Source: Promethearchaeota archaeon (GTDB lineage Archaea; Asgardarchaeota; Lokiarchaeia; Sigyniarchaeales; SOKP01). From it: 17,656 nucleotides of DNA. The notes under the pieces were generated by a model that saw only the letters and a program-made list of their open reading frames with translations, had not been told where the DNA came from and did not search any database. The stretch covers positions 1 to 17,656 of the forward strand of contig JAFGOA010000216.1 in the NCBI GenBank assembly GCA_016926735.1, written 5' to 3'. The first letter of the stretch is position 1. Every line of letters begins with the position of its first letter. Shown piece after piece: positions 1 through 17,656 of this stretch. The position numbers and the translations under genes are program-made.

Positions 1-12
1 ATAATAAAAATT

Positions 13-667: not shown

Positions 668-866
668 TCAAACCTTTGAAAATATCAGATTATTTTTATT
701 ATCTATATCTTATTTTTTCATAAATATTAAATAATGATTCTATTATGAAAAATACAAGAAATTATTAGAATTGGAAAAAAAAGTTTGTTCAATTTCAAAT
801 ATAATTATTTTTAATATAGAAAATCTGTATTTACTCAAAATTATATTGTATATAGAAGGTGATTTT

Positions 867-1556: not shown

Positions 1557-1594
1557 TACCTCAAAAAGTATTTTAAATAAATTAAAAGGTTTAT

Positions 1595-1619
1595 AGTGAC
1601 ATTACCGAATTGTGTCACT
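1595..1619. other. Short inverted repeat (possible hairpin or operator)
   Basis: AGTGACA-N11-TGTCACT about 40 nt downstream of the 867..1556 stop codon. Confidence 0.3.
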
Positions 1620-1811
1620 TAAATTAAAAAAAGAAAACAAAAAAGATCAATAATTTTTTTTGAAAATCAAATTCAGAATATCTCATTTTGGAAAATATTT
1701 AAAAATATTAATTAAATAGAAGAAAATACAGAAATATTACACATTTTTAACGTTAAAGATCAAAATATTTTTAAATAAGAAAAAAGAAAGATTTAAATAA
1801 ATTCAAGTTTT

Positions 1812-1839
1812 GATCTAAATGTAGATCTAATATTAGATC
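1812..1839. promoter_or_regulatory. Tandem overlapping palindromic operator GATCTA-N4-TAGATC (x2), probably PadR-bound
   Basis: GATCTA-AATG-TAGATC (1812-1827) and GATCTA-ATAT-TAGATC (1824-1839), just downstream of TATA-like TTTAAATA (1792-1799) and upstream of the GyrI-like/PadR pair. Confidence 0.6.
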
Positions 1840-1853
1840 CAAGAAAAGTAGAG

Positions 1854-2324
1854 TTGAAAAATATGAGTTATGAAGTAAAATATTTAAATACATTACCCCA
1901 GAAGATATTATCAGTTCGGAAGGAGTGTAAATCAGAAGATCTTCCTCAATTTATGAGTAATAATATGCAGTTATTATTTTCATATATTATTAAAAATGGA
2001 TGTTCTCCAAGAGGTCCCCCAATAGCAATCTTTTATAAAGTAAGTAAAGATAGTATAGATGTTGAACTAGGTGTTCCTATAGAAGGGAAAATCAAAGAAA
2101 AAGGTAAATTTAGAATAAGCAAAACACCGGGTGGTAAAACTGCCTTTACGCTATATAAAGGACTTTATGAAAAAATTGAGCCCGCTTATACTGCAATCAA
2201 GAATTGGGTAAAAGAGAAAGGTTATGAAAGTACAGAAATTTGGTGGGAAATTTATTGTACAAATCCGGAAGAAACGCCCAATAGAGAAGATTGGAAAACT
2301 GAAATATATTGTCAATTAAAATAA
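1854..2324 (+). CDS. GyrI-like (AraC effector-binding type) small-molecule-binding protein
   Basis: GPPIAIFY, VELGVP, PGGKTA..YKGLYEKI..AY..IKNW, WEIY.TNP and W.TEIY motifs typical of the GyrI-like fold. Start is TTG 1854 or ATG 1863. Confidence 0.85.
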   Translation: MKNMSYEVKYLNTLPQKILSVRKECKSEDLPQFMSNNMQLLFSYIIKNGCSPRGPPIAIFYKVSKDSIDVELGVPIEGKIKEKGKFRISKTPGGKTAFTLYKGLYEKIEPAYTAIKNWVKEKGYESTEIWWEIYCTNPEETPNREDWKTEIYCQLK

Positions 2325-2357
2325 TTTTTTTTTTATAAAATATTTTCTTTTAAAATT

Positions 2358-2987
2358 ATGAAAAATAAACCCCCACCAGAGGAATTGCCTTCGAGTGATG
2401 TTGCAATACTTGGAATTCTATCAGGTAGCGAAAGACCATTAACTGGAAAAGAAATTAATATGGTTATTTCAATGGCTCATTATAGTGATTGGGTTAATAT
2501 TGAATTCTCAACAGTGTATAATTGCTTAAAAAGACTTGAAGAATATGATTATATTAGAGGAAAATATACTATAAGAAATCAAAGAAGAAATAAAGAATTT
2601 GAACTTACCTTGAAGGGAAAAGCTATTTTAGAGAAAGAAATAGAGTGGAGATTGTCTATACCTAAAAAATCAATTAATGAGATAGATCTATCTATAAAAT
2701 ATTTAACGTTATTGCCTAGAGAAAGAGTAATGCAAGCTCTTGAGAGTTATATTAACCATCTTGAAAAAGATTTTATTTATTATGAAGAAATAATCAACGA
2801 TCTTAAAAAAGCAAAATCTGGGGAACAAATCAAACATATTCCAATAACGGAATCAAATCTTAAAACCCTACCCTTTGTAATAGCATTATTTGAAAGACCA
2901 TATAATGAACTTTTAGCAAGAAGAGATTGGTTAAAACAATTTATATCTAAGATTAATAATTATTATAATCAATATCAAGATTTTTGA
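2358..2987 (+). CDS. PadR-family transcriptional regulator with C-terminal helical domain
   Basis: AILGIL...TG.EI...STVYNCLKRLE..Y....K.F.LT.KG..L wHTH signature; C-terminal ...ARRDWL helix. Confidence 0.85.
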   Translation: MKNKPPPEELPSSDVAILGILSGSERPLTGKEINMVISMAHYSDWVNIEFSTVYNCLKRLEEYDYIRGKYTIRNQRRNKEFELTLKGKAILEKEIEWRLSIPKKSINEIDLSIKYLTLLPRERVMQALESYINHLEKDFIYYEEIINDLKKAKSGEQIKHIPITESNLKTLPFVIALFERPYNELLARRDWLKQFISKINNYYNQYQDF

Positions 2988-3120
2988 TTGATTTATCACT
3001 CAAAATCTGAAAAATATTTTTAGATTTCTAAATTTTTCAACCTATCAATTTAAATATTTGATACTATATTTTAATATTACGAAAAGATAAATTTCAAAAA
3101 AAATTATATTCATCAAAAAA

Positions 3121-3251
3121 GACTCCAGTCAAACCCTGGATTTTTGTCTTTTGGTTAGTGTATTTTATACACTTATTCTCAGCTTGCTGAGAAATCTCTC
3201 CCTTTACATTTTTATAATTCGGCCTTTACATTGGGTCGTTTGACTGGAGTC
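3121..3251. ncRNA. Orphan multi-hairpin structured RNA candidate (or MITE-like element)
   Basis: Perfect 14-bp terminal stem GACTCCAGTCAAAC/GTTTGACTGGAGTC enclosing hairpins at 3157-3173, 3176-3193 (G-CUUG-C loop) and 3221-3237; CCTTTACATT occurs twice; GC-richer than its flanks. Confidence 0.6.
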
Positions 3252-3550
3252 ACCTATATATATCATTGCTGTTGAGGGTATAATTATTAAAAAAACTAAG
3301 TAAAATAATATATAGGGCTTATTAATATAAAGTCACAATATCCTTTTTAAAAGTTAATATTAAAGAAAAAAAAAAACTATGTAAAAGCTCCTATAAGATC
3401 TAAAAATTTAAATAATTATGTTTAACCAATTATATATTAGTTAAAAATTGTATCTTTAATTTTTAATTAAAATAAATTTAATATATATAAATTAAGCAAA
3501 CAAAAAAAATTTTCAAAATTAGATCTATTAATATAAAAAAAAAGATAGAA

Positions 3551-4606
3551 ATGACCACAAAAAAATATTTATCAAATAAAAAAACTACTCAACAAACTAT
3601 TTCAATATCACCAGCACTGAAGGATTGGATTGAAAGATATGTAAATGTAGAGCATAAAAAAAATCCTGAAGATAAAAGATTTCAGAGTTTATCTGCGTTT
3701 TATTGTAATGTAATGGAGAATGTTCTTAAAATTTTTGAAAAGGGTAAATCCCTTGAAGATTTTAAAAATATGGTTGATAATAAAGTACAACATTTTTATG
3801 ATAATATAACCTTTAGAGCAATAATCTCCTATTATGAAGACTTAGTTAACTTAAACAAATATCAGGAATATCGATATAAAAATATTTTGGATATATTTAT
3901 GATGTATAGAAATCAAATAACTAATCTAGAGGAATTGACTCCTGAAAAAATAATAGAATCCGTCAACCGTTTTAAATTGTTTCTTCTTGATAATAAAGTA
4001 ACTAAAGATATTAATGTAGAATATGTTCAAAATAAGTATATCTTTCATTATTTTGGACTCTATTCAAATATTCATTATGATATATCGAAATGGTTTGCAG
4101 GCTTAGCAGGAGTATTAGGATTAAAAATTAAAAAATTAACATATTCAAAGAATTATACTCGATTTGATTTAGAAGAAACAACCCTATTCAAAAATATACA
4201 CCCTATGGATAAAGAGAGAAGAGCATTATTTTACGAGAATATTAAAGAATTTACAAATTATCATAAGATTATACTTGATGAGGATCCCACACATCTATGG
4301 TTAAAATTAGTAAATAATCAAAACACAATTCTATCATTTAATGATAAAGAAAAAAGTAATACCATAATTGAGGAAATAATCAATGACATTGAACGATATT
4401 CTTCGCTATTAGAGAGAAAAAAATTGATATTGAAACTTTTATATCATTTTAATTGGATTAAAATTTTAGATTTGGAGGAGAACTCATTTATTTTTAGATT
4501 AAATGAAGAGCATATAATAGAAAAAGAAATAATGGAAAAATTCTTAGAAAGATTTAATTTACAAGTAATCAGAGATAAAAATATTTACTTTATAAAAGAT
4601 TTGTAA
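3551..4606 (+). CDS. Hypothetical protein with N-terminal ribbon-helix-helix-like domain (putative regulator)
   Basis: 351-aa ORF; QQTISIS strand, PALKDWIERYV helix and SLSAFYCNVME helix fit the RHH pattern; remainder unrecognised. Confidence 0.6.
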   Translation: MTTKKYLSNKKTTQQTISISPALKDWIERYVNVEHKKNPEDKRFQSLSAFYCNVMENVLKIFEKGKSLEDFKNMVDNKVQHFYDNITFRAIISYYEDLVNLNKYQEYRYKNILDIFMMYRNQITNLEELTPEKIIESVNRFKLFLLDNKVTKDINVEYVQNKYIFHYFGLYSNIHYDISKWFAGLAGVLGLKIKKLTYSKNYTRFDLEETTLFKNIHPMDKERRALFYENIKEFTNYHKIILDEDPTHLWLKLVNNQNTILSFNDKEKSNTIIEEIINDIERYSSLLERKKLILKLLYHFNWIKILDLEENSFIFRLNEEHIIEKEIMEKFLERFNLQVIRDKNIYFIKDL

Positions 4607-4634
4607 AAAACTATAGTCTATAAATAAATCTATC

Positions 4635-6116
4635 TTAGATCTCTTTCACATTAATATTTACTCTTGGTTTAATCATTATCTTGTTCATTTCACTTAATTC
4701 CCTTAGAGATTCAATTACTTTTAGGATTGATGGTTCTTGTTCTAAAATTGGTGAATTTTGAAGTGCGTTTGCAAAAGCAGAATATGTGTTAGAGACCTTT
4801 TTTTCTGATTCAATATACGCTTTAAATGCATATTTTAGAGCAGAGTATCCCTTTCCTAAAGTTGGATGATCAAAAGCAAAAAATCCCTCACGATATACCA
4901 TTTCTGGAGGTAAATCATCATTAAAAATTCTGCCTTGATTATTGAATGTATTATATACTTCAGTCATCGGAAGTGGTTTCATATTTGATATAAAGTACCA
5001 ACATGAGTCATATTCCAGATTCCTCTTGATTTCTATTTCAATATTTTTCTTGTTATGAAAGGGTAATCCAAGAATAAAATTATGATTAGTTATAATACCT
5101 AAGCTTGAAAGAGATTGTATAAATTTATTTGAAATACCTTTATTTTTAATATAATTTTCTGTCAGGGTTGATTCTATACCATAATTTACAAAAAAGAATT
5201 TTAGTGAACTTTCAGATTGTATCTTTTTAAGATTAAATTTGCTCAAATGAGCTAATGAAATTAAACAAATGATATACATTTTATTTTTAGTCTTGCCTTC
5301 ATTCATAAAATATTCAAAGACTTCATTCCAGACTCTCTCAGGAAAACAAGCATTAGGTTCACATATCTGGATAAAAAAATCTTGGTCTATATTTTTATTT
5401 ATCGCTTCTAAACATTCTATAATTTTTTTTGAATTAGAAAATGGAGTATATTGAAGAGTTGATGTAATACAGAAATCACAATTATATGGACAACCAATTT
5501 GTGAAACAAGATAGAAGGATTTTATTTTAATAGGAAATTGATATACATCAGCTATGATTGAAGGAATTTGATAATCTTCTGGTTTTATCATTGAAAGATT
5601 GAATTTTTTTCTTATCCATGCTATCCCATTCCTCAAACATATATTCTCAAGGGGTATAAGTTTTTGTATATAAGAGAATTTAGCGCCTACATTTCCAACA
5701 TAAATAATTTTATCATTATAATGTTTTTTTAGTGTTTTTATTAGATTTACACCCAAATCTAATCCATGTGCATAGGAACTTATTCCAATATGTGTAATAT
5801 CATCATTTTTATCTAAAATTCTATGTATATCTTTAACTGAGCATGATTCATCAATAACTAATGAATCAATTTCAGGGAGATTTTTTGCCAGATATCTCCC
5901 TTCAATATTAGGTGAATTTAAAATATTAGCATAAATAGATGAATTAAATGGATTTAATTTATATCCATATTCATCAAATGCATTTTGAATTTCAGATTTA
6001 TCAATATATTGAGGAAAATTATCATATTTTGGATCATTTAAAATATCTAAAGCTAATTCCTCTGTAGATTTTAAAGGATTAGGTAAGGTCCTAACAAATA
6101 ATATTCTTTTTTTTAT
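4635..6116 (-). CDS. Cobalamin-binding-domain radical SAM protein (ORF extended 120 codons upstream of the TTG at 5756)
   Basis: CxxxCxxC motif GCPYNCDFC, plus YGIES and FILGLP motifs. The frame stays open upstream and encodes KKRILFV...THIGISSY...KIIYVGNVGA, resembling a B12-binding domain. No in-frame ATG/GTG/TTG there; candidate start ATA at 6114-6116 behind GAGGGA. Confidence 0.8.
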   Translation of the reverse strand: MKKRILFVRTLPNPLKSTEELALDILNDPKYDNFPQYIDKSEIQNAFDEYGYKLNPFNSSIYANILNSPNIEGRYLAKNLPEIDSLVIDESCSVKDIHRILDKNDDITHIGISSYAHGLDLGVNLIKTLKKHYNDKIIYVGNVGAKFSYIQKLIPLENICLRNGIAWIRKKFNLSMIKPEDYQIPSIIADVYQFPIKIKSFYLVSQIGCPYNCDFCITSTLQYTPFSNSKKIIECLEAINKNIDQDFFIQICEPNACFPERVWNEVFEYFMNEGKTKNKMYIICLISLAHLSKFNLKKIQSESSLKFFFVNYGIESTLTENYIKNKGISNKFIQSLSSLGIITNHNFILGLPFHNKKNIEIEIKRNLEYDSCWYFISNMKPLPMTEVYNTFNNQGRIFNDDLPPEMVYREGFFAFDHPTLGKGYSALKYAFKAYIESEKKVSNTYSAFANALQNSPILEQEPSILKVIESLRELSEMNKIMIKPRVNINVKEI

Positions 6117-6130
6117 AGTTTCATCCCTCT

Positions 6131-7141
6131 TTATTCTATTTTTGAAGATCCTAATAATACCATATCTTTATGATTATAGTAAAAAGGAAGATATGCATAG
6201 AGATTTAATTGATTTTCTTTAAGGATTTGTTGTGATTCCTTATCATTAACGTCTATTATAAAAGATAATGAACGAATATCTCCTTTTAAATTAAATTTTT
6301 TAATTATAGTCTCGAAAATTTGTTTTTTTTCACAATAGGTTAGATTATTGCTAATTAATCTGATATTGAACCATGAATGTTGATTTCCTGATATTTCAGC
6401 ATATATCTTATCATCTTCATCCATAAGATATATTTTTTTTTTCAATAAACTATGTTTGTTAATTTTAATAGATAAAATGATTTTTTGATTTTCTGAAAAT
6501 GATGGAATAAAAACTTCAGTTGATATAATTCTTTTAATTTCAGCTTCTTTAATTATTTTATATATATTTGTAGAGAGCTTTATATCGGGTTTAATCATTT
6601 TCCAATAAAAATCTTTTAAAATTCGTCCATAAATTAATAGATTTTCACTTAAATTATGTTTAGGGAGAGAACCATATTTTTTAAATTTAAAATTCTCAAG
6701 AACTTGAATCATTTTAAGGTTTTTTTGATTAACAACAGCATAGACACAAAAGATATTTGAGTTTTTTAAATCATCTATATATTCTGCCAATTTTAATCCT
6801 AAAAGATTCATTATTCCCATATTTTTGAAATTATTATGTACCATAGCGAGTTTTACGATAGCGATTCCAAATTGCTTTTGAAGTATAACTTGTCCAATCA
6901 GGTGATCACCATAATAAGCACACTTCCAAATGATTTTGGATTTTTCATTAACATTAGATTTTTTTATCAATTTTTTTAAATAGTTTGAATTATAGAACTC
7001 ACCATCAGAATATTCTTTTCCGTATATATCATTTATTAATTTTAAAATTTGATTTATATCATTTATTTCTACGTTGCGTATGATGATCTTTTTTTTTTCT
7101 TCTAAATAGCACTTAGATTTTAAAATCTCAAACCCTGTCAT
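6131..7141 (-). CDS. GNAT-family acyltransferase, possibly with a second degenerate GNAT-like domain
   Basis: IIRNVEINDINQILKLI start, motif A-like VHNNFKNMGI, N..MIQVLE..KF...G motif B; the C-terminal half ends in a similar D.ESQQIL....L..Y..LP pattern. Confidence 0.75.
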   Translation of the reverse strand: MTGFEILKSKCYLEEKKKIIIRNVEINDINQILKLINDIYGKEYSDGEFYNSNYLKKLIKKSNVNEKSKIIWKCAYYGDHLIGQVILQKQFGIAIVKLAMVHNNFKNMGIMNLLGLKLAEYIDDLKNSNIFCVYAVVNQKNLKMIQVLENFKFKKYGSLPKHNLSENLLIYGRILKDFYWKMIKPDIKLSTNIYKIIKEAEIKRIISTEVFIPSFSENQKIILSIKINKHSLLKKKIYLMDEDDKIYAEISGNQHSWFNIRLISNNLTYCEKKQIFETIIKKFNLKGDIRSLSFIIDVNDKESQQILKENQLNLYAYLPFYYNHKDMVLLGSSKIE

Positions 7142-7265
7142 AAATTAATGATCACTTTTTGTAATATTTATTCAGAATGACTTTGTCAATTTATTGTATT
7201 TTTGATCTGGTTATATCATAATTAAAAAAAATTAGACTATAAAACTTTTTGCATATCTTATAAGA

Positions 7266-7347
7266 CGCGGAGAGAGGGAATCGAACCCCCATATGTATAA
7301 ACATAACAACTTAGCAAAATGTCGCAATTCCATTATGCGATCTCCGC
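7266..7347 (-). tRNA. tRNA-Ser(GCT), long variable arm, no intron
   Basis: Acceptor GCGGAGA/TCTCCGC, G73; anticodon loop TT-GCT-AA; variable arm TATGT-TTAT-ACATA; T-arm GGGGG-TTCGATT-CCCTC; T30.T40 mismatch in the anticodon stem. Confidence 0.88.
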
Positions 7348-7355
7348 TTCGATTA

Positions 7356-7443
7356 CGTGATGGACAGGATTCGAACCTGTGGTATCGGGATTCGATACTC
7401 CCACTCTCAAGGCGGGCACCTTAAACCTCTCAGTCACCATCAC
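7356..7443 (-). tRNA. tRNA-Ser(TGA), long variable arm, no intron
   Basis: Acceptor GTGATGG/CCATCAC, G73; CCCGC-CT-TGA-GA-GTGGG; variable arm GTATCG-AATCC-CGATAC; T-arm ACAGG-TTCGAAT-CCTGT. Confidence 0.92.
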
Positions 7444-7453
7444 TTTATTAAAG

Positions 7454-7538
7454 TACGGGAATATGGATTTGAACCATAGAACCTTCTTCAAGGTATGGAT
7501 TTTGACTCCACTGCCTTTAACCACTCAGCCATTCCCGC
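7454..7538 (-). tRNA. tRNA-Leu(CAA), long variable arm, no intron
   Basis: Acceptor GCGGGAA/TTCCCGT, A73; GTGGA-GT-CAA-AA-TCCAT; variable arm ACCTT-GAAG-AAGGT; T-arm TATGG-TTCAAAT-CCATA. Confidence 0.9.
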
Positions 7539-7556
7539 TTTCCTATATCGAATAAA

Positions 7557-7638
7557 TACGGATGGTGGGACTCGAACCCACGAGGCACTACTGCACCCGC
7601 TTTTAAAGCGAGATCTATTCCAACTTAGACACATCCGC
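7557..7638 (-). tRNA. tRNA-Leu(TAA), long variable arm, no intron
   Basis: Acceptor GCGGATG/CATCCGT, A73; CTCGC-TT-TAA-AA-GCGGG; variable arm GCA-GTAG-TGC; T-arm GTGGG-TTCGAGT-CCCAC. Confidence 0.9.
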
Positions 7639-7660
7639 TTTTTTTCAATTCGATGTGATG

Positions 7661-7742
7661 TGGGGATGGTGGGACTCGAACCCACGAGGCACTATTGCAT
7701 CCACTTCTAAGGCGGGATCCTTACCAGCTTGGGCACACCCCC
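7661..7742 (-). tRNA. tRNA-Leu(TAG), long variable arm, no intron
   Basis: Acceptor GGGGGTG/CATCCCC, A73; CCCGC-CT-TAG-AA-GTGGA; variable arm GCA-ATAG-TGC; T-arm GTGGG-TTCGAGT-CCCAC; C10.A25 and C27.A43 mismatches. Confidence 0.88.
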
Positions 7743-7781
7743 ATAATTTATATTTTCATTAGTATCTTAATTTGAATTTTA

Positions 7782-7806
7782 TGATTTATATTGATTTATA
7801 ACTTCT
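7782..7806 (-). promoter_or_regulatory. Putative BRE/TATA promoter of the tRNA array
   Basis: Minus strand reads GAAGT-TATAAATCA-A-TATAAATCA (two TATA-like boxes 10 bp apart), 40-60 nt upstream of tRNA-Leu(TAG). Confidence 0.45.
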
Positions 7807-8358
7807 TTATCTTAGAATTAATTGTGATAAGAAATTATTCTCAAGAGAAAAATCTTCAAAAAAAGGATTTTAAATCGATCTCAGATTATAATAAGAGCAA
7901 TGAACTGAGTGACAAACTCAAGAACAGACTATTATTTATATTTAAGATCATGATAAATATAAAATATGATTTATTCATATTTAAGCATTATGACCGTGGG
8001 AATAAATTCCCTCAATGATTCTTTAATTCGGAATAATTTTTGTATAAATATAATATGATGTATTAATATCTAAGAATTAATTTTAATAAAGAGCAATATT
8101 AATAAATATGTAGATAATTTGGCTAATTAAATAAATATTAGATCATATAACATAAGAATTTCTATAAGACTCTTTTATAACAAAAAATTCTATTTGTTTA
8201 AAACTTCATGAATTATAATAATTTATAAATATAATTTTAAAATGCAAATTAGCACAAAAATCTACTTCAATGACCTCTGTTTTATATTAATTGAATAATA
8301 AATTTTAATTGTTACTTTTAATTATAAAGAAAATATTCCATTCTCTTTTTATTTAAAT

Positions 8359-8491
8359 GGGAGGGTGGTCTAGCTTGGTATGATACATAATTTGTCATTA
8401 AGCCAAATTAGCCAAATCGGCTGGGGAAAATAAAACAACTGTTTTTTTTACAGAAGCCGAGTGGTCGCGGGTTCGAATCCCGTCTCTCCCA
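8359..8491 (+). tRNA. tRNA-Pro(GGG) with two introns (27/28: 8387-8416; 37/38: 8427-8455)
   Basis: Acceptor GGGAGGG/CTCTCCC, A73; T-arm GCGGG-TTCGAAT-CCCGT. Removing 30-nt and 29-nt inserts gives CTCGG-CT-GGG-GG-CCGAG. Both inserts fold into relaxed BHB-type motifs. TATA-like TTATAAA at ~8322. Confidence 0.88.
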
Positions 8492-8778
8492 TTATAAAAA
8501 ACATCATATTTTTAATATAATCAGAAATTCAACTATACTTTTTTTTTATAATTATTAATCATTCATTTAAATGCCATTAAACATAAATTATATTCAAAAT
8601 AATTCTAAAATTACTATTTTTTTAGTATAATTTAATGAAAAAAATTATAGAAATCCCTTTTTTTTATTATTTCAAGTCATAAGAGGCTATAATAAAGTAC
8701 AAAATGACAAAAATACATTCAATGTTTCTCCATATTATTTTAAATATGACCTTTTCATTTTATTTTATAATGATAAAA

Positions 8779-8849
8779 TTGGAAATACAGAGATATTTCC
8801 AAATTACATTGAAAAAGGAAATGATATCAGAAATCTGGAAGATTTCTGA
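8779..8849. promoter_or_regulatory. Two inverted repeats upstream of the small GTPase
   Basis: TTGGAAATA-N6-TATTTCCAA (8779-8802) and TCAGAAATCT-GGA-AGATTTCTGA (8827-8849). Confidence 0.5.
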
Positions 8850-8951
8850 ATGAAAATTGTCCAGTAAGTTATAGGATTAATTAAAAACCAAAAAATAGCA
8901 AAAAAAAAAATATCACTTCCTTTTTTTTTTTACACCTAATGAGGTTACCAA

Positions 8952-9509
8952 ATGCTTACTTTACAAAGTGAAATTGTGTTTAAGATTTGTATATTTGGTG
9001 ATAATGGAGCAGGGAAGACTTCGTTTATAAATAGATATTTAACCAGTAATTTTCATTCTTTTTATTCAAAATTAGAGGGAGTTGATTTTTACTCTAAAAA
9101 AGTGAAGATTGACTCACAAAAAGTAGCTTTACAGATTTGGGATTTTTCAGCAGAAGATAGATATAGATTTCTTCTACCAAGTTTCGTTAGTGGTTGCCAT
9201 GCTGCAATATTTATGTTTGATATGACGGATTTTAAATCTTTAAGACATTCTGAGGAATGGCTTAATATGTTCAGAAAAGGTTATAATCAAAAAATAGAAG
9301 GAACCAGCCTCCCAATAATATTAGTAGGAGGAAAATCTGACTTAAGACATAAAAGAGTAATTTCTAGAATGCAAGCTGAGAAGATAGTATCAACTCAAAA
9401 TTTATATCTATACCTTGAATGTTCTGCTAAAACAGGTGAAAATGTGGATTTAATTTTTGAAAACATTACAGATTTAATCAGAGAAAGAACAGGAAATTTA
9501 GTTTATTAG
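8952..9509 (+). CDS. Rab/Ras-superfamily small GTPase (atypical switch motifs)
   Basis: G1 GDNGAGKTS, GVDF, LQIWD, G4 GKSD, G5 CSAK; SD GAGGT upstream; no C-terminal prenylation motif. Confidence 0.92.
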   Translation: MLTLQSEIVFKICIFGDNGAGKTSFINRYLTSNFHSFYSKLEGVDFYSKKVKIDSQKVALQIWDFSAEDRYRFLLPSFVSGCHAAIFMFDMTDFKSLRHSEEWLNMFRKGYNQKIEGTSLPIILVGGKSDLRHKRVISRMQAEKIVSTQNLYLYLECSAKTGENVDLIFENITDLIRERTGNLVY

Positions 9510-9745
9510 AATTTGAACAAGATAAAAAAATATACAAAATAAGGTATTAATTTCATTAATCTAATTTTACATAAGTTAAAATCATTCAAATAAGCTACAA
9601 ATTTATATATTTTTAATAGAAAAATAATGCACTATTTCTCCATAGTCATTTATATATCACTTACTATATCTTATAATTAATAGTGGATTTTTGAACCAAT
9701 CGTTAAATTGCGTTAATATATAATTCTATATTAAATATAAGGAAA

Positions 9746-12700
9746 ATGTTAAGAAAAAAAAAAAAAGGAAAATATGGTATTGTTCTCTTCACCTTAATTC
9801 TTCTCCTATTTAGTATTGGTATCTCACAACCACTATTTTCTCCTCCTTCTTCAATAAATTCTGATAATTCAGATTCAACTTCAGACAATTTAAATATAAT
9901 TCATACTTCAGATTTTGCACCTCCTCAAGAATCACAAGATAATTACGCAGCAGCACTTCAAAAAGCAATATATTTTTATCAGGAACAACGTTCCGGAGAT
10001 CTTCCTGAAAATAATACTGTTATTTGGAGAGGTGACTCCTTTCTTAATGATGGTGAAGTTGTAGGATTAGATCTCACAGGGGGGTATTATAATGATGGGG
10101 GATATCTTAAATTAGGACTTCCATTAGCATCTGCAATTACTACCTTAGCTTGGAGTGTTTATGAATATCAGACAGTTTTTGAAAATATAGGTCAACTTGA
10201 TGAAATATTAGATGCTATTAAATGGGGAACAGATTATTTATTAAAATGTCACCCTTCTCCAAATGAATTTTATTTTCATATTGGAGATATAAGTACGATG
10301 TATGATTGGAGAGGTCCTGTTGAGACTGCTTATATGTTTGTTAATAGACCATCATATAAAGTAGATGAAACACATGGTGGTTCTGCTGTTGTAGCTGCGT
10401 CTTCAGCAGCTTTAGCATTATCTTCAATAATTTTTAATGAAACTAATCCAGATTATGCTATAAATTTAACAATCCATGCAGAACAACTCGATAATTTAGC
10501 ATGGAAAATGGAGTCAGATGATTATTATAATACAGTATATAATTCATTTACTCGATATCAATCTCATAATGGTTTTTATGACGAATTATCAGCTTCAGGA
10601 ATATTATTATATTTAAGAACGGGTAATATTACTTATTTAGAAAAAGCAGAAAATGCAGCATGGTCTTGGCCAAAAGAAGGACCTTATTTCCAATATATGC
10701 AAACTCATTCATGGGATGATATGCATTATATGGCTCAGATCTTTCTTTCACGAGAAACTACTAATCGCTCTTATGTTGAATCAATAGAAAGGAATTTAGA
10801 TTACTGGTCTCCTGCATATGGAACAGAAAATATTACATATACAAATGGAGGTTTAGCATACTTAAATCCAACATGGGCAGGAGAAGGCGCACTTAGATTT
10901 TCAGCTAATGCGGCATTTCTTGCATCAGTTTGGTCTGATGATGTGAATTGTACTCCAACAAATTCTTCAATCTATAGAAAATTTGCTGAATCTCAAATAA
11001 ATTATACACTTGGAGATAATCCATATGGTAGAAGTTATTTAATTGGTTTTGGAAATAGTTCTTGGCAAAATATAAATCACAGAACTGCTCATGGTTCTTG
11101 GTCTGGAAGTATCTCTGATCCAATTGATAATCGACATATTCTATATGGTGCCCTTGTAAGTGGTCCTCGCGGTGGTGATTTTTGGAATGATGATAGAGCA
11201 ATTCCTGAAGAAACAGGCGTTGCAATTGATTATAATGCAGGAATAATTGGCGCATTGGCGAAAATGACAGATTTATATGGTGGTACTCCTTATATAGATT
11301 TTCCAAATGCCTCTTGGTTCAGACCTAAAAATGAGACGGGTCTTGAGTATTACGGTAATTCAGAACTTACCATAAATGGTACAATTTCTACAAGAATAAC
11401 TGTTGATCTTACAAATCACGGTACTTGGCCAGCAAAAGTTACCGATATGCTTTCCTATAGATATTATCTTAATCTAACTGAAGTTTTTGAGGCAGGTTAT
11501 ACTATCGATAATATAACAATTGATATCGATACAGAAGGAGGCATTGAAGCAATAGTTTCAAACTTAATTAATCTTACTAACAATATATATTATGTTGTCG
11601 TTGATTATAGCGGAATTGCCATATATCCAGGTCGTGATGATACAACAGCAAAAGAAACGACTATTACTTTTTCATTACCTATTAGTGCTCCTGATACTGC
11701 ATGGGATCCTACAAATGATTGGTCCTTCCAAGGATTAAATAGTTCAAGACACCCTTCTGAATATATTCCTATTTATGATAATAATGTCCTTATATATGGT
11801 AAGTGTCCTGTTAATGATACAACTCCACCAATAGCCACAATAACAGGTTTGAATACAACAGTTATAGATTCCTCACAAATTAGATTAGATTGGGATTTTA
11901 ATCCAGATCCAGATATCTATGGATATAATATTTATAGAGAAATTTACTCTGGTTTTGACCCAAACGGTTTGAATAGAGTAGGACAAACAATCACTAATCA
12001 CTATCTTGATACGATGTTATATGAAAATACCACATATTATTATATCGTAATCCCTATTGATAGTAGTCTTAATTTAGGTACTCCTTCAAATGAAGTTAAT
12101 GCAACTACAGATGAAGATTTGTATTCTCCAGCAGCTCCAACAAATGTATCAACTAATAGGATGAATTCCACAGCAGTATTTATTGATTGGAATGATAATA
12201 TAGAACCAGATCTGACAAAATATTTTATTTATAGAAGCACAAACGACACTTTCATAGCAGATGGATCAAGCTTCTTAGCAGAGTCATTTATAAGCGAATA
12301 TTTAGATATCAATAGTTCTATTGAATCCTCATACTATTATATTATTGTTGCTGTTGACATTAATGATAACCTGAGTAATTCATCTTTAATAGCTGATGCA
12401 ATAACTCCATTAATAGTAACAGGTTTAAATATTACTTTTTTTGATTCATCACAGATTCGATTAAATTGGACTGCGAATACTTATACTAATCTTTATTCAT
12501 ATTATATTTATAGAAATACTTATTCAGGATTTGAAGCTAATAATAGTTATAGAATTGGAGAATCTTTTATAAATGGATTTAATGATACTTTATTATTTGA
12601 AAATACAACCTATTATTATATTGTAAGGGCTGTTGATAATAGTCTCAATATTGGCCCATCATCAAATGAAGTCAATGCTACAACAGCTATTGATTCATCG

Positions 12701-13414
12701 GCCCCGGCATCCCCTACAAATGTCTCAACACCTATAGTAAATTCTACAGAAATATTCCTTGATTGGGATGATAATATAGAAATTGATGTAGTTGGATATT
12801 TAATATATAGAAGTATTCACCAGAATTTTACTCCAAATTCATCAACATTTTTAGCTCAAACGATAGTTAGTGAATATCTAGATACTAATATTTCTGCAGG
12901 AATAACATACTATTATAAAATCGTTGCTGTTGATATAAATGGATATCAAAGTGGTCCTTCATATGAAATAAGTGCTACTGTACCATCTATAGTAAACCCT
13001 CGAAATGAATTGATGATAGTAGTTATAGTTATCTTAGGTATTATCATGACGTTATTAGGTTCTGTATATGTTTTAGCCAGGCAAAAACCTAAAAGACCTA
13101 TGTCTCAAATGGTTTTACATGAACAACCAAAAGAGCATAAAGTTTTTATAAAAAGTGAAGTAGATGTTTTAGATAATAGTAGACTTATACATATTTTTGA
13201 AGAAGAAGAGCTCTTGCAAAGAATTGATCATTTTAAAGATATAACGATAACAATCCTTGAAGAAGATTTTCTTGAAAATATTGAAAAACTAGATTGGGAC
13301 GATGACTTAGAGAAAAAAACATTCATAAAAGAAATGCTTGTATTAACACCAGATGAAAGACAGAAAATCATTAAAGAAATGCTTAATGATTATTATAACC
13401 AATCGAAAAAATAA
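9746..13414 (+). CDS. Single-pass surface protein: signal peptide, GH9-like domain (catalytic residues substituted), CBM3-like, 4x FN3, TM helix, cytoplasmic tail
   Basis: GH9 motifs QRSGDLP, WRGDS, DLTGGYY, KWGTDYLLK, YDEL, WDD, GDNP.GRSY.IG.G, HRTAHGSW, LYGALV.GP, A.DYNAG; CBM3c-like N..TWPA...LSYRYY.NLTE...WDPTNDWSFQGL; FN3 repeats; TM LMIVVIVILGIIMTLLGSVYVLA followed by RQKPKR; many N-X-S/T sequons. Confidence 0.9.
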   Translation: MLRKKKKGKYGIVLFTLILLLFSIGISQPLFSPPSSINSDNSDSTSDNLNIIHTSDFAPPQESQDNYAAALQKAIYFYQEQRSGDLPENNTVIWRGDSFLNDGEVVGLDLTGGYYNDGGYLKLGLPLASAITTLAWSVYEYQTVFENIGQLDEILDAIKWGTDYLLKCHPSPNEFYFHIGDISTMYDWRGPVETAYMFVNRPSYKVDETHGGSAVVAASSAALALSSIIFNETNPDYAINLTIHAEQLDNLAWKMESDDYYNTVYNSFTRYQSHNGFYDELSASGILLYLRTGNITYLEKAENAAWSWPKEGPYFQYMQTHSWDDMHYMAQIFLSRETTNRSYVESIERNLDYWSPAYGTENITYTNGGLAYLNPTWAGEGALRFSANAAFLASVWSDDVNCTPTNSSIYRKFAESQINYTLGDNPYGRSYLIGFGNSSWQNINHRTAHGSWSGSISDPIDNRHILYGALVSGPRGGDFWNDDRAIPEETGVAIDYNAGIIGALAKMTDLYGGTPYIDFPNASWFRPKNETGLEYYGNSELTINGTISTRITVDLTNHGTWPAKVTDMLSYRYYLNLTEVFEAGYTIDNITIDIDTEGGIEAIVSNLINLTNNIYYVVVDYSGIAIYPGRDDTTAKETTITFSLPISAPDTAWDPTNDWSFQGLNSSRHPSEYIPIYDNNVLIYGKCPVNDTTPPIATITGLNTTVIDSSQIRLDWDFNPDPDIYGYNIYREIYSGFDPNGLNRVGQTITNHYLDTMLYENTTYYYIVIPIDSSLNLGTPSNEVNATTDEDLYSPAAPTNVSTNRMNSTAVFIDWNDNIEPDLTKYFIYRSTNDTFIADGSSFLAESFISEYLDINSSIESSYYYIIVAVDINDNLSNSSLIADAITPLIVTGLNITFFDSSQIRLNWTANTYTNLYSYYIYRNTYSGFEANNSYRIGESFINGFNDTLLFENTTYYYIVRAVDNSLNIGPSSNEVNATTAIDSSAPASPTNVSTPIVNSTEIFLDWDDNIEIDVVGYLIYRSIHQNFTPNSSTFLAQTIVSEYLDTNISAGITYYYKIVAVDINGYQSGPSYEISATVPSIVNPRNELMIVVIVILGIIMTLLGSVYVLARQKPKRPMSQMVLHEQPKEHKVFIKSEVDVLDNSRLIHIFEEEELLQRIDHFKDITITILEEDFLENIEKLDWDDDLEKKTFIKEMLVLTPDERQKIIKEMLNDYYNQSKK
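11843..12985 (+). repeat. Tandem 576-bp duplication encoding FN3 domains in A-B-A-B order
   Basis: TGLN...DSSQIRL.W...ENTTYYYIV...SNEVNATT...PA.PTNVST...DW.DNIE recurs with a 576-nt period (11843/12419; 12089/12665). Confidence 0.85.
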
Positions 13415-13443
13415 TAAACTATTAATTTTATTCAAAAAGGGAA

Positions 13444-13905
13444 ATGATAATAATGTCTTCTAGATTAGTCCGTCAGGAAAAATTAGTTTATGAAGAAATA
13501 AAACATTATCTTAACGAAAATAGAGTTTTTGAATTAAATAAAGCATTATCTTATATTAAAAATCAATTCAATAAAAACAACCTTAAATTTGATCTAAATC
13601 AAATTAAAAATATTTTTTTATCATTTTTAAAAAGAAAAATAATAGTAGAAGGTTCTTATTTAGTTAGAGAAGATATTTTATCAATAAAAAAAAGACGATT
13701 TATTTTCAAATATATTATTCAAAATCCAGGAGTTTCCTTTTTTGATATCAAACAAGAATTAAATTATAATTCTCACATATTAAAATGGCATCTAAGCATT
13801 CTTTTAATATTTGATTATATTTATAAAATTCAAATTGAAAATCGTGATACTTATTTTGATTCAAATTATCTTCAAGAAGATTCCAACATTCCAGATAATG
13901 TTTAA
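13444..13905 (+). CDS. Winged-helix transcriptional regulator
   Basis: RRFIFKYIIQNPG.SF.DIK.EL....HIL.WHL.IL.....I wHTH pattern after an N-terminal helical domain; starts 29 nt after the GH9-like gene. Confidence 0.75.
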   Translation: MIIMSSRLVRQEKLVYEEIKHYLNENRVFELNKALSYIKNQFNKNNLKFDLNQIKNIFLSFLKRKIIVEGSYLVREDILSIKKRRFIFKYIIQNPGVSFFDIKQELNYNSHILKWHLSILLIFDYIYKIQIENRDTYFDSNYLQEDSNIPDNV

Positions 13906-14030
13906 AAAATTAATAAAATAGCTTGTTTATGAAAAAAATTTCATAATTATTCCAAATCTCTTTATAAAGTACTTTTTGTTATTTTATATTAAATAATAAG
14001 AATATATTTTTTTAAATAAAAAAGAGGAAA

Positions 14031-14216
14031 TTGAATATGGTTGATATGAATAATAATTTTCTAAATAATCTAAAACTTCAAGCAACACAAAGAAAAGAAC
14101 AAGGAAAAAAAAGGAAAGTAGTTAAAGAATTAACTCAACCTCTTGAAATTAAGAAAAATTATCAAGAAATTTATAGTAATATTCTCAAAGAATTTACAGA
14201 ATTAATGGGAAAATAA
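14031..14216 (+). CDS. Small basic helical hypothetical protein
   Basis: 61-aa ORF with GAGGA upstream; it fills the intergenic space and its stop abuts the convergent flavodoxin stop. Confidence 0.45.
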   Translation: MNMVDMNNNFLNNLKLQATQRKEQGKKRKVVKELTQPLEIKKNYQEIYSNILKEFTELMGK

Positions 14217-14690
14217 TTATTTTTCTAATTGACTAATATAATCTGTGATTTTATCGTCATAAGATTTTTCCTTTAGTTCTTTTCTCCCTATTTCTAATGT
14301 GGCGATGGGCGTCTTTCCGCTAACTTCTTGCATAATTTGAAAAAGCGTAGAACCACCATTCCATCCTCCTTGAGTACAAAAAAAAGCAACTTTATCCAAT
14401 TTATCTTTAAATTCCATTAGGAATGTTTTTATAGCGGGGGGCATTTTTCCACCCCAAATTGGCGTACCAATAATTATTAATTCATAATCTTTGGGATTTT
14501 TCATAAATTTATTTAACTCAGTTAATTCTCCTTTTCTTGCAGCATTTCCGCCCCTTAAAAACCCTATAATGCCTGATCTCCCTTTAAGATCAATTATTTC
14601 CTCAATATCACAGCTAAGTTTTTTTGAAATAATTTCAGCAATATGTTTAGTTCTACCAGTTCTTGAGTAATAAAGAATTAATTTTTTCAT
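14217..14690 (-). CDS. Flavodoxin-like protein
   Basis: FMN phosphate loop YYSRTGRTK.IA, GTPIWGG.MPP and AFFCTQGG motifs. Confidence 0.9.
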   Translation of the reverse strand: MKKLILYYSRTGRTKHIAEIISKKLSCDIEEIIDLKGRSGIIGFLRGGNAARKGELTELNKFMKNPKDYELIIIGTPIWGGKMPPAIKTFLMEFKDKLDKVAFFCTQGGWNGGSTLFQIMQEVSGKTPIATLEIGRKELKEKSYDDKITDYISQLEK

Positions 14691-14983
14691 AATTGTAATA
14701 CCTTCTCGATATAAAAATTTCTCTTTTAAATGAAAGAAGCATCGGATATAATTAAATTTATCAAAAAATCTCGTGATTTGTTAAAAAAGTATTAAATAAA
14801 CATGTTTTTAGATTTATGATCTTTATTGTATTAAAGAATGTTAAAAATATAAAAACCAATAATTTATGTTAATCAAAAAAATATATTTAATTAATTATAA
14901 ATCTAAAGTATTTTATTGATTTTTTAAAATTGTACAGAATGAATAGTTGAGGTGTCTTAAAAATTAAAGAATATTATCCCCAA

Positions 14984-15769
14984 TTGAGTATATTAATTGC
15001 GCTATTGGGAATATTAGCATCAATAATGATGATAATTGTCTATAGGAAACAAAGAGAATTAAAACTTTTATTATTATCATATCTGAATACGACAATAGGG
15101 GTTGTTATCAGCGCTTTAAATGATATTTTTACTCCAGGAGCGATTGGTCATGAAATAAGTAGAATATTTTATATTCTTGGTTCGTTAATACTCTTCATTT
15201 CAGTTTTTAAAGAATATTCACAAACATTCCGTAAAAGGAAAGATAATTTTTTAAATAATAATCTTGAATTATCTGTGGTTGTAATTATAACACCAAGTTT
15301 AATCATTACAATCTCTTTAGAAATACTTATAATTACTTTTTGTTTGATCTCAGCTATGATGTCTTTTAGGATAGCAAAGAAAAAAAGAAAATATGCTAAT
15401 GCATTTTTAGGTATGTGTTTATGTACTGTTTTATCAGCTTTGTCATTAACAATTGTCGAAAGTTTAGGATTTGAGGAAATGAGATTATTTGCTTTAGGTA
15501 TGGATATCATCTTTTTTACAATGCTTTTTATAACGGCTATTGTTATCTTTTTAGAACAAAAATTAATCACAACAGAAGCAGATAAAACAATTATGAAAGA
15601 TAAATATTCTCATGATTTAGGTAATATTCTACACACAATTTCTCTTTCATATGAATTAATTAAAAATGATGATAAGACTAATATAACTCTACCTAAAGAA
15701 TTGGATGAATTAATACAAAAAAAAATTGAAGAAGCATCTAATGTTGTACGATTTATAAGATCTTTATGA
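14984..15769 (+). CDS. Multi-pass membrane protein with C-terminal HisKA (DHp)-like domain and no ATPase domain
   Basis: About six hydrophobic segments, then H-box-like YSHDLGNIL; the ORF stops ~50 aa later. The start may be slightly upstream (GAGGTG at 14949, in-frame ATT at 14963). Confidence 0.7.
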   Translation: MSILIALLGILASIMMIIVYRKQRELKLLLLSYLNTTIGVVISALNDIFTPGAIGHEISRIFYILGSLILFISVFKEYSQTFRKRKDNFLNNNLELSVVVIITPSLIITISLEILIITFCLISAMMSFRIAKKKRKYANAFLGMCLCTVLSALSLTIVESLGFEEMRLFALGMDIIFFTMLFITAIVIFLEQKLITTEADKTIMKDKYSHDLGNILHTISLSYELIKNDDKTNITLPKELDELIQKKIEEASNVVRFIRSL

Positions 15770-15820
15770 CCTATTTGAAAAAGAAGATATTCTCAAAATA
15801 GAGTAATTCTAATTATTAAC

Positions 15821-16405
15821 CTATATATGCTCTCCTTGTTTTAAATTAGAGATACCTACAGTAGACAAATCCTCATCATTTTTTAATAATTGTTTGTCTA
15901 TTAGTCCCTTTTCAATATATTTATCAAGAATATTAATTATAGATTTTTTATTTATATTTTTATTAAGTGCCTGTCCAAAAACAGCACTCTTTTCTATTAA
16001 TAAAGCTAAACTAATTTCCTTTTCTTTTGAAATTATTTTTAATAAGATTTTATCAATTATATCTGGAATATCTTCTTTTAACATATCTTTATATTCTATA
16101 TTACTGAGATATATTAAGCTTTGATCTTGAATGCATTGCTTGATATCGTTAGGTGCTGAGGAATTAAATTGTGAGTTCTCAAGAAAATTATTGTCGTTAT
16201 TTATTTTCAATGAATTATGAACGATTTGAGTACCTCTCACTTTACCATCAGAATCAATATGGACAAGTATTGTTTCTCCACAGTGTTCTGAAACAAAAGG
16301 ATTTAAATGTTTATTAGAATTTGAAATTATATCCAGATCTATATCGATTTGCATAGTTTTTTTACATACTGGACATTGAGAAAATATTGTTTTGATATTA
16401 ACCAT
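15821..16405 (-). CDS. Hypothetical protein with N-terminal zinc-binding-like domain and C-terminal winged-helix-like domain
   Basis: CPVC...EHC...VHID..GKVRG at the N-terminus; IDKILLKII....EISL...IINILDKY.EKGLI at the C-terminus. Confidence 0.65.
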   Translation of the reverse strand: MVNIKTIFSQCPVCKKTMQIDIDLDIISNSNKHLNPFVSEHCGETILVHIDSDGKVRGTQIVHNSLKINNDNNFLENSQFNSSAPNDIKQCIQDQSLIYLSNIEYKDMLKEDIPDIIDKILLKIISKEKEISLALLIEKSAVFGQALNKNINKKSIINILDKYIEKGLIDKQLLKNDEDLSTVGISNLKQGEHI

Positions 16406-16671
16406 TTTTACCCCATGTTATTCTTTAAGATTCTTTGATATCTAATGATAAAAATCTTTAAAATTTAACTATAGACTCAAATTTAACAAGAGTTAATAGA
16501 AAAATTATACCCTTAACTATGTAACTATGATAACAATACTTATTTTTTAATTTTTTGAAAATATACTTTGTATCAATCTTAACTTTAAAATAATACAACA
16601 TAGTGTTCTTTCTTTTCTTATTTGAATCGCTTAATACAGATCAAACGAAAAATAAAAGAGATTAATCAATC

Positions 16672-17526
16672 TCAGAGGAAATCATTTAAAGGTTTACTTA
16701 AGTTATAATAATATTTATAAAGGGAGTCAAAAAATTCTTGTAATTTTGGTTGATCATTAATAATGAAATAATTATGATAATCAATGTCACCATCTTTTAT
16801 CAGAGAAAAGATTAAAATTTCATTAATTTTTAGAATCGTAAATTGAAAAAAATTCCTATCATATATCCTTATTTTTTCTTTTATATTGTATTGATTTTCA
16901 AATAGATCTAATATTTTATTATTCCCCTTAAAAAATTGTAAAATTGTTTTATCTGTGACAATTTGTAATTTAAAATTTTTCAATTCATTAGGAATGTCAC
17001 CATCTAAAAAATCAAAATCATCATAAAACATTTTAAAAAGTTTATATTCAAAATTAAAATCCCACCATCCTATTAATCCTAATTGAAAAGTTGAGTTTTT
17101 TGAAGTGTCTTTAATTTTTTTAAATATATTATTGATATTGGCTATAAAATCAAAAGAACTCTGATTAGTATTAATATTTTGAAAATAGGGCAAGTAATCA
17201 TATAATAATTTTGAAGGTATTGATTCTGAATTAATTTTACCAAATATATTATTAAAATTACTTAATATTTCAAATCTATTTAGACTATTAAGTATATAAC
17301 TTCCTAAATTAGTGAGAGAAAAGTATTTATTCTCCTTTTTTATTAAATTTATTTTTTTTAATTTATTTAGATTGTCTTGTACAGTTGAAATCGCTTCATC
17401 AATCAACTTAGATGTTTCAGTTAAATTGTATGAATTATTTTTATATAACTTTAATATTTTTAATGTTAATGGGGAAGAAATAATATGTAATAAATTTTGA
17501 AAATCATAATTATGATTTTGAATCAT
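16672..17526 (-). CDS. ArsR-like winged-helix transcriptional regulator with a large C-terminal domain
   Basis: ISSP.TLKIL.L......L.E.SK.I....STV...LNKL...NLI.K....F.LT.LG wHTH signature. Confidence 0.75.
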   Translation of the reverse strand: MIQNHNYDFQNLLHIISSPLTLKILKLYKNNSYNLTETSKLIDEAISTVQDNLNKLKKINLIKKENKYFSLTNLGSYILNSLNRFEILSNFNNIFGKINSESIPSKLLYDYLPYFQNINTNQSSFDFIANINNIFKKIKDTSKNSTFQLGLIGWWDFNFEYKLFKMFYDDFDFLDGDIPNELKNFKLQIVTDKTILQFFKGNNKILDLFENQYNIKEKIRIYDRNFFQFTILKINEILIFSLIKDGDIDYHNYFIINDQPKLQEFFDSLYKYYYNLSKPLNDFL

Positions 17527-17656
17527 AATATCTAAAAAATTTTATGAGCAAAAAATATTTACGGTGAGATTGGAATTTCCCTTTTTTCTGGAAAATACAG
17601 TTATGTTGAATTTATTATCATTAAAGGCTATTCCGATTATTAGATTGATTTAATCC

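Follow-up and report, generated by a model that had tools for sequence, protein, structure and literature searches.

A GH9-derived membrane protein without catalytic residues as a candidate surface receptor docking a tandem winged-helix protein in a Loki-type Asgard archaeon

The contig JAFGOA010000216.1 of a Promethearchaeota archaeon (assembly GCA_016926735.1) was analyzed over its positions 1 to 17,656, a stretch referred to below as the window. Two adjacent genes of its forward strand are considered here, the first encoding a large membrane protein with a glycoside hydrolase family 9 (GH9) ectodomain, hereafter P1, and the second a small winged-helix protein, hereafter the partner. On balance, P1 is probably a surface receptor that docks the partner and not an enzyme. 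The GH9 module is dead, i.e. devoid of its catalytic residues, and yet under selection; the live paralogs of the genome with an assembled C-terminus are tailless; the tail is shared by other proteins and linked to partner genes; a contact model, a promoter element and membrane-anchored relatives of the partner are available as well. Taken together, these lines of evidence argue for a receptor with a docked regulator and contradict an anchored enzyme with a chance neighbor. The cassette is one of a Lokiarchaeial family in which one type of docking domain is combined with many outer domains, each with a co-evolving partner. The pair formed by the tail and the partner looks like an unpublished kinase-free route from the cell surface to gene control; no description of the tail/winged-helix system was found in the literature.

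The host is a Loki-type Asgard genome of 3.88 Mb and 25% GC, designated G000; G001, G002 and G003 are other genomes of the same genus and contigs are designated by a C followed by a number.

Ectodomain and active site of P1

A sequence-only reading of the window had described a signal peptide, a GH9 domain, a CBM3-like module, four FN3 domains, one transmembrane (TM) helix and a cytoplasmic tail. Each of these elements was recovered by domain searches and hydropathy analysis (Table 1), the N-terminal hydrophobic signal or anchor being located at aa 12-30. The CBM3c module lies directly behind the GH9 domain in the arrangement known as Theme B: alignments to the GH9-CBM3c structures 8u49, 7unp, 1js4 and 1g87 extend as far as aa ~688, and 2xfg_B, a CBM3c chain on its own, aligns with aa 544-689 (E 4e-25). 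Within the stalk, the two A repeats are 59% identical and the two B repeats 52%, and only two FN3 repeats are present in the ortholog found on G002:C145. The ectodomain contains 38 N-x-S/T sequons versus 1 in the tail, a distribution around the TM helix which fits an outside-in orientation.

The loss of the catalytic residues proposed in the same reading was borne out by alignment to Thermobifida fusca Cel9A/E4 (1js4), in which D55 is replaced by N116, D58 by G119 and E424 by G. The domain therefore belongs to GH9 by sequence and lacks both the DxxD base pair and the acid E424. The cleft is altered at five further positions (H125 to Y, W209 to H, W256 to Q, H376 to N and Y420 to P) and retains Y206, D261, W313, R317 and R378. 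Comparison with the G002 orthologs gave ratios of nonsynonymous to synonymous substitution (dN/dS) of 0.16 for the GH9 domain, 0.17-0.23 for CBM3c and 0.12 for the tail domain, versus 0.79 for the TM helix and linker (aa 1086-1140, compared with G002:C145); the tail row of the G001:C33 comparison is unusable, as that open reading frame (ORF) is cut by the locus. These low values indicate that the loss of catalysis is not decay and that the dead domain is under purifying selection.

The remaining GH9 copies were sorted by the same residues, a copy being called live when the catalytic and cleft residues are present by alignment. All the tail-bearing copies (P1, G002:C145, G001:C33 and G001:C75) lack D58, E424, W209 and H376, as does the contig-cut copy C186. 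The live copies (C177, C103 and C192 of the host, G003:C521 and G029) retain DAGDH, HHR, NEVA and W209, and no tail match was found in those whose C-terminus is assembled (C177 and C192 of the host). The dead copies form one group in the maximum-likelihood tree (support 89/97). As judged from these alignments, the pseudo-enzyme status is specific to the receptor-type GH9 copies.

The second dead GH9 copy of the host (G000:C186, 1-2152, minus strand) is cut at the contig end inside an FN3 repeat. Another contig, G000:C124 (1-603, plus strand), begins inside an FN3 repeat, after which it encodes a TM helix, a tail and then a long-form partner. The two fragments are probably one gene split during assembly of the repeats, which would give the host genome two dead-GH9 receptors.

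Docking domain, partner family and promoter element

The cytoplasmic C-terminal part of P1 comprises 112 aa, of which the last ~80-95 aa form the conserved domain; a genome search performed with aa 1085-1222 returned paralogous matches limited to the last ~80 aa. With an iterated hidden Markov model (HMM), the tail family of the host amounts to 11 proteins, all of which carry the domain at their C-terminus. The other parts of these proteins are diverse: a GH9 domain in 1, beta-helix/NosD domains in 4, SBP_bac_5 in 1, FN3 in 1 contig-cut protein and no Pfam domain in 2, the last 2 being free-standing tails of 82 and 96 aa. Every long member displays an N-terminal signal and a TM helix ahead of the domain. 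One R is invariant in the tail alignment and an F, a P and an E are nearly so. No Pfam family was found on aa 1085-1222 at E<=1, no NCBIfam family was found for the tail, and a Foldseek search of the tail model against the PDB returned nothing at E<=1. When modeled alone, the tail forms five helices, of which the last three are confident.

The domain was detected in 113 of 134 genomes sampled from the family, and the phylum sample gave 127 of 400, with 6-15 copies per genome in the genus and weak matches only elsewhere. Among 1.84 billion cluster representatives it has 324 members, which are 58-1906 aa long and almost all end with the domain; in a sample of these, the tail follows beta-helix domains, SBBP/LVIVD propellers, LamG and sialidase-like CBM domains. 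In other genera it is also found behind an 8-TM zinc-ribbon protein and small bitopic proteins. A protein of ~264-270 aa conserved across the family (L031 in G013 and L047 in G004; ORF 1198-1989, minus strand) has a different layout, with N-terminal TM helices, the tail in mid-protein and an extra acidic C-terminal domain, and a long-form partner gene lies upstream of it. This protein may represent an ancestral or housekeeping version of the cassette.

The prediction that the tail would occur on varied ectodomains and usually beside a homolog of the gene at 13444-13905 was thus upheld by the HMM search, in the host genome and in related genera. A same-strand partner homolog adjoins 8 of the 11 host tail genes, downstream in five cases and upstream in three. 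Conversely, an HMM restricted to the first winged helix of the partner (WH1) identified 11 host proteins at E<1e-12, of which 10 are encoded next to a tail gene, the eleventh being the fusion protein of C138 described below. In 30 related genomes, ~35 of ~50 tail matches have a strong partner match at less than 700 nt and many of the others lie at contig ends. The distances among tails and those among partners are correlated (Mantel r 0.78, 0 of 5000 permutations), also when host paralogs only are considered (r 0.67, 5 of 5000). Such a correlation indicates that the cassettes duplicate and diverge as units and does not by itself prove contact.

The existence of a winged-helix gene 29 nt downstream on the same strand was verified by the ORFs, and the 153-aa product was modeled with AlphaFold2 (AF2) as two winged helices, WH1 (aa 10-74) and WH2 (aa 75-139), each made of three helices plus a wing, with a predicted local distance difference test score (pLDDT) of 89. 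The top Foldseek matches of the partner are ArsR/SmtB and MarR proteins with a probability of 1.00 but E-values of 2e-3 or weaker, ArsR/SmtB proteins being the nearest folds to WH2. At the level of the tandem, ScpB, ESCRT-II Vps22 and Rpc34 were matched, every match being weaker than E 1e-3. The Pfam helix-turn-helix (HTH) matches of the partner are all below threshold (PF24266 at 21.9 bits for a cut-off of 31), and a word-based protein search retrieved 2 relatives only, neither of them named. Most of the paralogs are longer (212-239 aa) and include a third winged helix, WH3, which matches HTH_24, MarR, TrmB and ArsR profiles; the HTH_24 and HTH_5 cut-offs are exceeded only in WH3 or in short forms. 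The short form is kept in two other species of the genus (G003, 153 aa, 95% identity; G001, 161 aa, 49%), and a fresh truncation was rejected on account of this conservation. No WH3 remnant was found downstream of 13905 by tblastn with three paralogs, the best hit having an E-value of 3.1 and stops. At loci C41 and C207, long and short forms lie side by side.

At least six host proteins carry more distant tandem winged-helix modules attached directly after TM helices, and the coupling of surface domains to a winged-helix output seems to be a frequent arrangement in this genome. In a protein of 376 aa (G000:C138:3373-4503, minus strand), a full WH1-WH2-WH3 module is fused to a preceding part made of two TM helices and an outer loop of ~75 aa, and each of the four genomes of the genus has conserved this membrane-tethered partner. 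Membrane-protein families of 421 aa and ~750-770 aa (G000:C41:63499-68147, C222:4878-7184, C103:15879-17144 and C16:81798-83063) end in C-terminal tandem winged helices which are distant relatives of WH2-WH3 of the partner.

The sequence-only reading had also proposed that the tail binds the neighboring regulator, and the complex model supports such binding: an ipSAE of 0.85 was obtained in all three runs, the best of 3 controls reaching 0.07. Of 80 solved complexes, 58 attained the 0.85 mark, as did 2 of 110 mismatched pairs, counts which constitute a rough calibration only, because our own alignments were used. The runs share at least 80% of the contacts and the pLDDT of the partner is at least 82. 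The modeled interface involves aa 30-108 of the 1112-1222 tail fragment, including the nearly invariant F82, P91 and E93, and on the partner aa 16-73 (WH1) and 109-122 (third helix of WH2), including the invariant W115. In the model the tail domain is wrapped around WH1 and masks the third helix of WH2, the canonical DNA reader; in ArsR-type proteins, the DNA-reading helix occupies this position. The net charge is -10 for the tail domain and +5 for the partner.

A promoter element accompanies the cassettes. Its common form is the direct repeat TTCA-N7-TCCA, which ends 2-9 nt ahead of the TATA box. Upstream of the G001:C33 ortholog, a near-identical block of 40 nt is retained in otherwise diverged DNA, the protein identity being only 62%. 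Ahead of G001:C75, of a live GH9 gene (both G003:C521 and its host counterpart on C103) and of the beta-helix cassettes, related blocks are found, the beta-helix cassettes having their own variant TTTCAyTTTTnGTCCA. The element was scanned by exact core and with the spacing as control, since loose regular expressions are useless in a genome of 25% GC. TTCA-N7-TCCA followed by TATA gave 13 non-coding matches at spacing 7 versus 0-6 at the other spacings within N3-N11, and three of the sites lie in the window (Table 1). The core TTTCTCCATA was also found upstream of a GH3 beta-glucosidase gene (C160), where no TATA box occurs at that spacing, and upstream of a gene for a PKD/Ig-like protein (C4). 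This 11-bp direct repeat, abutting the B recognition element (BRE) and the TATA box, might be what a tandem winged-helix regulator reads. Three near-identical promoter-like blocks (TTTCAAAAATAATCCAAAA..TTTATAAAGAGAATTTTTAAAAT) matching the N7 element were also noted at G000:C67:12796, 14550 and 24735 (plus strand).

Locus, proposed mechanism and alternatives

The coordinates of the locus are collected in Table 1. The window is AT-rich, with a GC content of 22-34%. The GTPase gene upstream of the receptor gene is syntenic in G001, where the tail end of the sequence upstream of G001:C33 reads as the end of the same GTPase. GTPase linkage was rejected as a general feature of the cassettes, because the receptor-gene cassette alone (1 of 11) has such a gene within 6 kb, though the genome encodes 45 such GTPases. 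The product of the 59-aa ORF is helical and has no Pfam match; the ORF and its promoter element are both retained at the G002:C145 locus, from which the partner gene is deleted. As this small ORF is present in single copy in the genome, it was rejected as a recurring third component of the cassettes. The window also contains a tight cluster of five tRNA genes (7266-7742, minus strand; Ser-GCT, Ser-TGA, Leu-CAA, Leu-TAA and Leu-TAG) and two more winged-helix regulator genes, PadR-like at 2358-2987 (plus strand) and HTH_45/HVO_A0261_N-like at 16672-17526 (minus strand), both outside the partner family.

Table 1. Features of the receptor locus (window coordinates; aa numbering of P1)
Feature	Position	aa	Strand	Evidence and remarks
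Promoter element, third copy	8718-8746		+	TTCA-N7-TCCA and TATA-like sequence; ~200 nt before GTPase gene
Ras-family small GTPase gene	8952-9509		+	PF00071, E 3e-38; directly upstream of receptor gene
Promoter element of receptor gene	9628-9663		+	TGCA-N7-TCCATAG, 3 nt, TATA box TTTATATA, then CACTTA
Receptor gene (dead GH9), P1	9746-13414	1-1222	+	ORF; 1222-aa type I membrane protein
GH9 domain	9944-11257	67-504	+	PF00759, E 7e-110; PDB GH9 matches down to E 5e-147
CBM3c-like module	11303-11809	~520-688	+	Unbroken alignment to GH9-CBM3c structures; 2xfg_B
FN3-like stalk	11816-12985	691-1080	+	Four repeats, A-B-A-B; Pfam fn3 and NCBIfam CbhB matches agree
TM helix	13007-13075	~1088-1110	+	Hydropathy; followed by positive cluster RQKPKRP
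Juxtamembrane linker	13076-13165	1111-1140	+	Variable; low pLDDT
Docking domain	13166-13411	1141-1222	+	Conserved, acidic, helical; motif EK..FI.EML.L.P.ER
Partner gene	13444-13905		+	ORF, 153 aa; starts 29 nt behind receptor ORF
Promoter element, second copy	13940-13969		+	TTCA-N7-TCCA and TTTATAAA; before 59-aa ORF; conserved at G002:C145 locus
Small basic ORF	14037-14216		+	59 aa; conserved; preceded by the second promoter-element copy

The mechanism that we propose can be summarized as follows. The GH9-CBM3c module would be held out from the membrane by the glycosylated FN3 stalk. A single helix would span the membrane and, past the variable linker, the acidic domain of ~80 aa would dock the basic two-winged-helix partner inside the cell. 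The receptor would in this manner sequester the partner at the membrane with the reading helix of WH2 covered. An outside event, either polysaccharide binding or clustering, possibly followed by proteolysis, would then shift the pool of free partner. For a single-pass receptor facing an insoluble multivalent polymer, clustering or regulated proteolysis would be most plausible, and the variable linker and the free tail-only proteins would be compatible with either. The freed partner would act on promoters displaying TTCA-N7-TCCA; the short form might act via WH2 after release, together with a long paralog, or as a modulator. We infer that cellulose or a beta-glucan is the ligand, that docking is altered or released in a ligand-dependent manner and that the 153-aa partner binds DNA. 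A wider reading, which we put forward tentatively and with some doubt, is that Lokiarchaeia possess a modular signaling system, free of kinases and sigma factors, in which outer domains are swappable (among them the dead cellulase, a solute-binding protein and lectin-like or beta-helix modules) and the docking domain, reached through one helix, sequesters a cognate, co-evolving tandem winged-helix regulator reading TTCA-N7-TCCA at the BRE/TATA box of its regulon; the present locus would then be a cellulose sensor in control of live GH9 and GH3 genes and of the Ras-like GTPase.

Several observations weigh against the receptor reading and its mechanism. The main weakness for this locus is the lack of WH3 in the partner: the 153-aa protein is a short form limited to WH1 and WH2, and it is from WH3 that the paralogs derive their best matches to DNA-binding HTH families. 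With its single free helix, the short partner could hardly read a direct repeat of two sites. As the DNA-reading helix of WH2 is the tail-binding surface in the model, WH2 may be protein-binding and not a DNA reader. The interface residues are no more conserved than the rest of the two proteins (permutation p 0.24 for the tail and 0.37 for the partner), and the ortholog locus G002:C145 has no partner gene. On the ligand side, several sugar-stacking residues are among those missing from the cleft, and the replaced cleft positions vary among the dead paralogs; with the loss and variation of W209, W256, H125, H376 and Y420, glucan binding is not assured and an ordinary cellulose chain cannot be assumed as the ligand. 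Finally, of the 8 cassettes checked in other genera, only 1 is preceded by the promoter element, so that its tie to the system is established mainly within the genus.

Part of this evidence can be accommodated by other explanations. Docking without transcription is a serious rival, albeit an unlikely one. The tandem winged-helix partner would then be a protein adaptor to GTPases, the cytoskeleton, trafficking or turnover, with no action on DNA. The use of the third helix of WH2 and its invariant W115 in the modeled interface would suit an adaptor, as would a short partner deprived of WH3, the occurrence of the tandem winged-helix adaptors ScpB and ESCRT-II Vps22 beside ArsR/MarR proteins among the Foldseek matches, and the Ras-family GTPase gene placed directly upstream, syntenic in G001 and preceded by the same promoter element. 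An adaptor is nevertheless at odds with the DNA-binding HTH families matched by WH3 of the long paralogs and with the fixed-spacing direct repeat that marks the cassettes by the TATA box and differs in sequence between cassette subfamilies. The partner family gives no EAP30 or Vps25 Pfam match, and the GTPase neighbor is confined to 1 of 11 cassettes despite the abundance of such GTPases. We regard as somewhat unlikely that the pair is an auxiliary or decaying one, whose short partner is a non-DNA-binding decoy or modulator, the working regulators being the three-winged-helix paralogs, for instance the one beside the second dead-GH9 receptor (C186/C124). The conservation of the short form in two other species of the genus, its confidently predicted fold and its high complex score with its own tail all speak against such a role, which would otherwise account for the missing WH3, for the coexistence of long and short forms at C41 and C207 and for the disappearance of the short gene at G002:C145.

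Two further explanations concern the receptor itself. The tail could report load instead of a ligand, titrating the regulator according to the amount of receptor in the membrane and thereby adjusting surface-protein expression as in the FlgM/sigma-28 assembly checkpoint, with the dead GH9 domain serving as an adhesin or structural module. This possibility is distinctly unlikely in our view: the outer part of one receptor is an SBP_bac_5 solute-binding domain, of a kind classically used for ligand sensing, purifying selection acts on the dead GH9-CBM3c module, and the TTTCTCCATA core precedes live GH9 and GH3 beta-glucosidase genes, as would fit a substrate-linked regulon. It does have in its favor the tails attached to adhesin- or S-layer-like outer domains (beta-helix, PKD/DUF285, propellers) or to membrane proteins with hardly any outer part, the free-standing tail proteins of 82-98 aa, the drift of the cleft residues and the presence of the promoter element on the cassettes themselves, which suggests autoregulation. 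An ordinary membrane-anchored cellulase beside an unrelated regulator is extremely improbable. Although the GH9-CBM3c architecture resembles that of processive endoglucanases and live GH9 paralogs exist in the genome, three catalytic and five further cleft residues are replaced and the tail is conserved, modular and tightly linked to the partner family.

Significance and comparison with known systems

Asgard archaea are the closest relatives of eukaryotes. Little is known of archaeal transmembrane signaling apart from two-component systems and a small number of regulators bound to the membrane, and we are aware of almost nothing tested on this subject in Asgard archaea. The receptor locus offers a testable system in this regard, composed of a docking domain of ~80 aa, a partner of 153 aa, a defined candidate operator and a natural series of receptors that differ in their outer domains. 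A probable conversion of an enzyme to a sensor is displayed by dead and live GH9 paralogs found together in one genus. The results also support the idea that some Lokiarchaeia are cellulose degraders which regulate their own enzymes.

The enzymes closest to the ectodomain are the Theme B GH9-CBM3c cellulases (T. fusca Cel9A/E4 and C. cellulolyticum Cel9G), with which P1 shares fold and domain order over ~620 alignable residues (E 4e-136 to 1js4). P1 differs from them by the absence of D55, D58, E424, H125, W209, W256, H376 and Y420 and by the addition of the FN3 stalk, the TM helix and the cytoplasmic domain. As in the membrane-bound one-component regulators of the ToxR/CadC type, a winged-helix output would be placed at the membrane without phosphorylation, and the host does encode partner relatives fused behind TM helices. 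In P1, however, the sensor and the winged-helix protein are separate polypeptides which a docking domain would bring together; their winged helix does not belong to the OmpR type and the orientation differs. In the SdpI/SdpR pair of Bacillus subtilis, described by Ellermeier et al. in 2006, a membrane protein reportedly sequesters an ArsR-type winged-helix regulator without a kinase. The same kinase-free sequestration logic is proposed here, and the nearest folds to WH2 of the partner are ArsR/SmtB proteins. SdpI is nevertheless polytopic, senses a peptide toxin and has no homology to the tail, and the partner family has two or three winged helices.

Along with SdpI/SdpR, the systems nearest in their logic are the biomass sensors RsgI/SigI of Clostridium (Acetivibrio) thermocellum (PMC4711584, PMC10328401, PMC6582324); in one of them, RsgI6, the polysaccharide is sensed by a GH10 module with very low activity (PMC4711584). 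RsgI proteins and P1 alike are single-pass membrane proteins with an outer module of carbohydrate-active type (CBM3, PA14 or a low-activity GH in RsgI) and an inner part holding a transcription regulator, a putative one in the case of P1; several paralogous pairs with different outer modules exist on both sides, in an organism that is cellulolytic, presumably so for the archaeon, and has cognate promoters, candidate ones in the archaeon. The differences are equally clear: the archaeal host has no sigma factors, P1 is oriented N-out/C-in whereas RsgI is N-in, the tail of P1 is not RsgI_N, the partner is a tandem winged-helix protein and not a member of the sigma-70 family like SigI, and no autoproteolytic domain or RseP step is shown for P1. 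Given the lack of a sigma factor and of RsgI_N and the reversed topology, the likeness is one of analogy and not of membership, and the parallel to the clostridial biomass sensors was apparently reached by convergence. The logic of P1 is most likely the same as that of anti-sigma/sigma or SdpI/SdpR pairs, built from unrelated parts.

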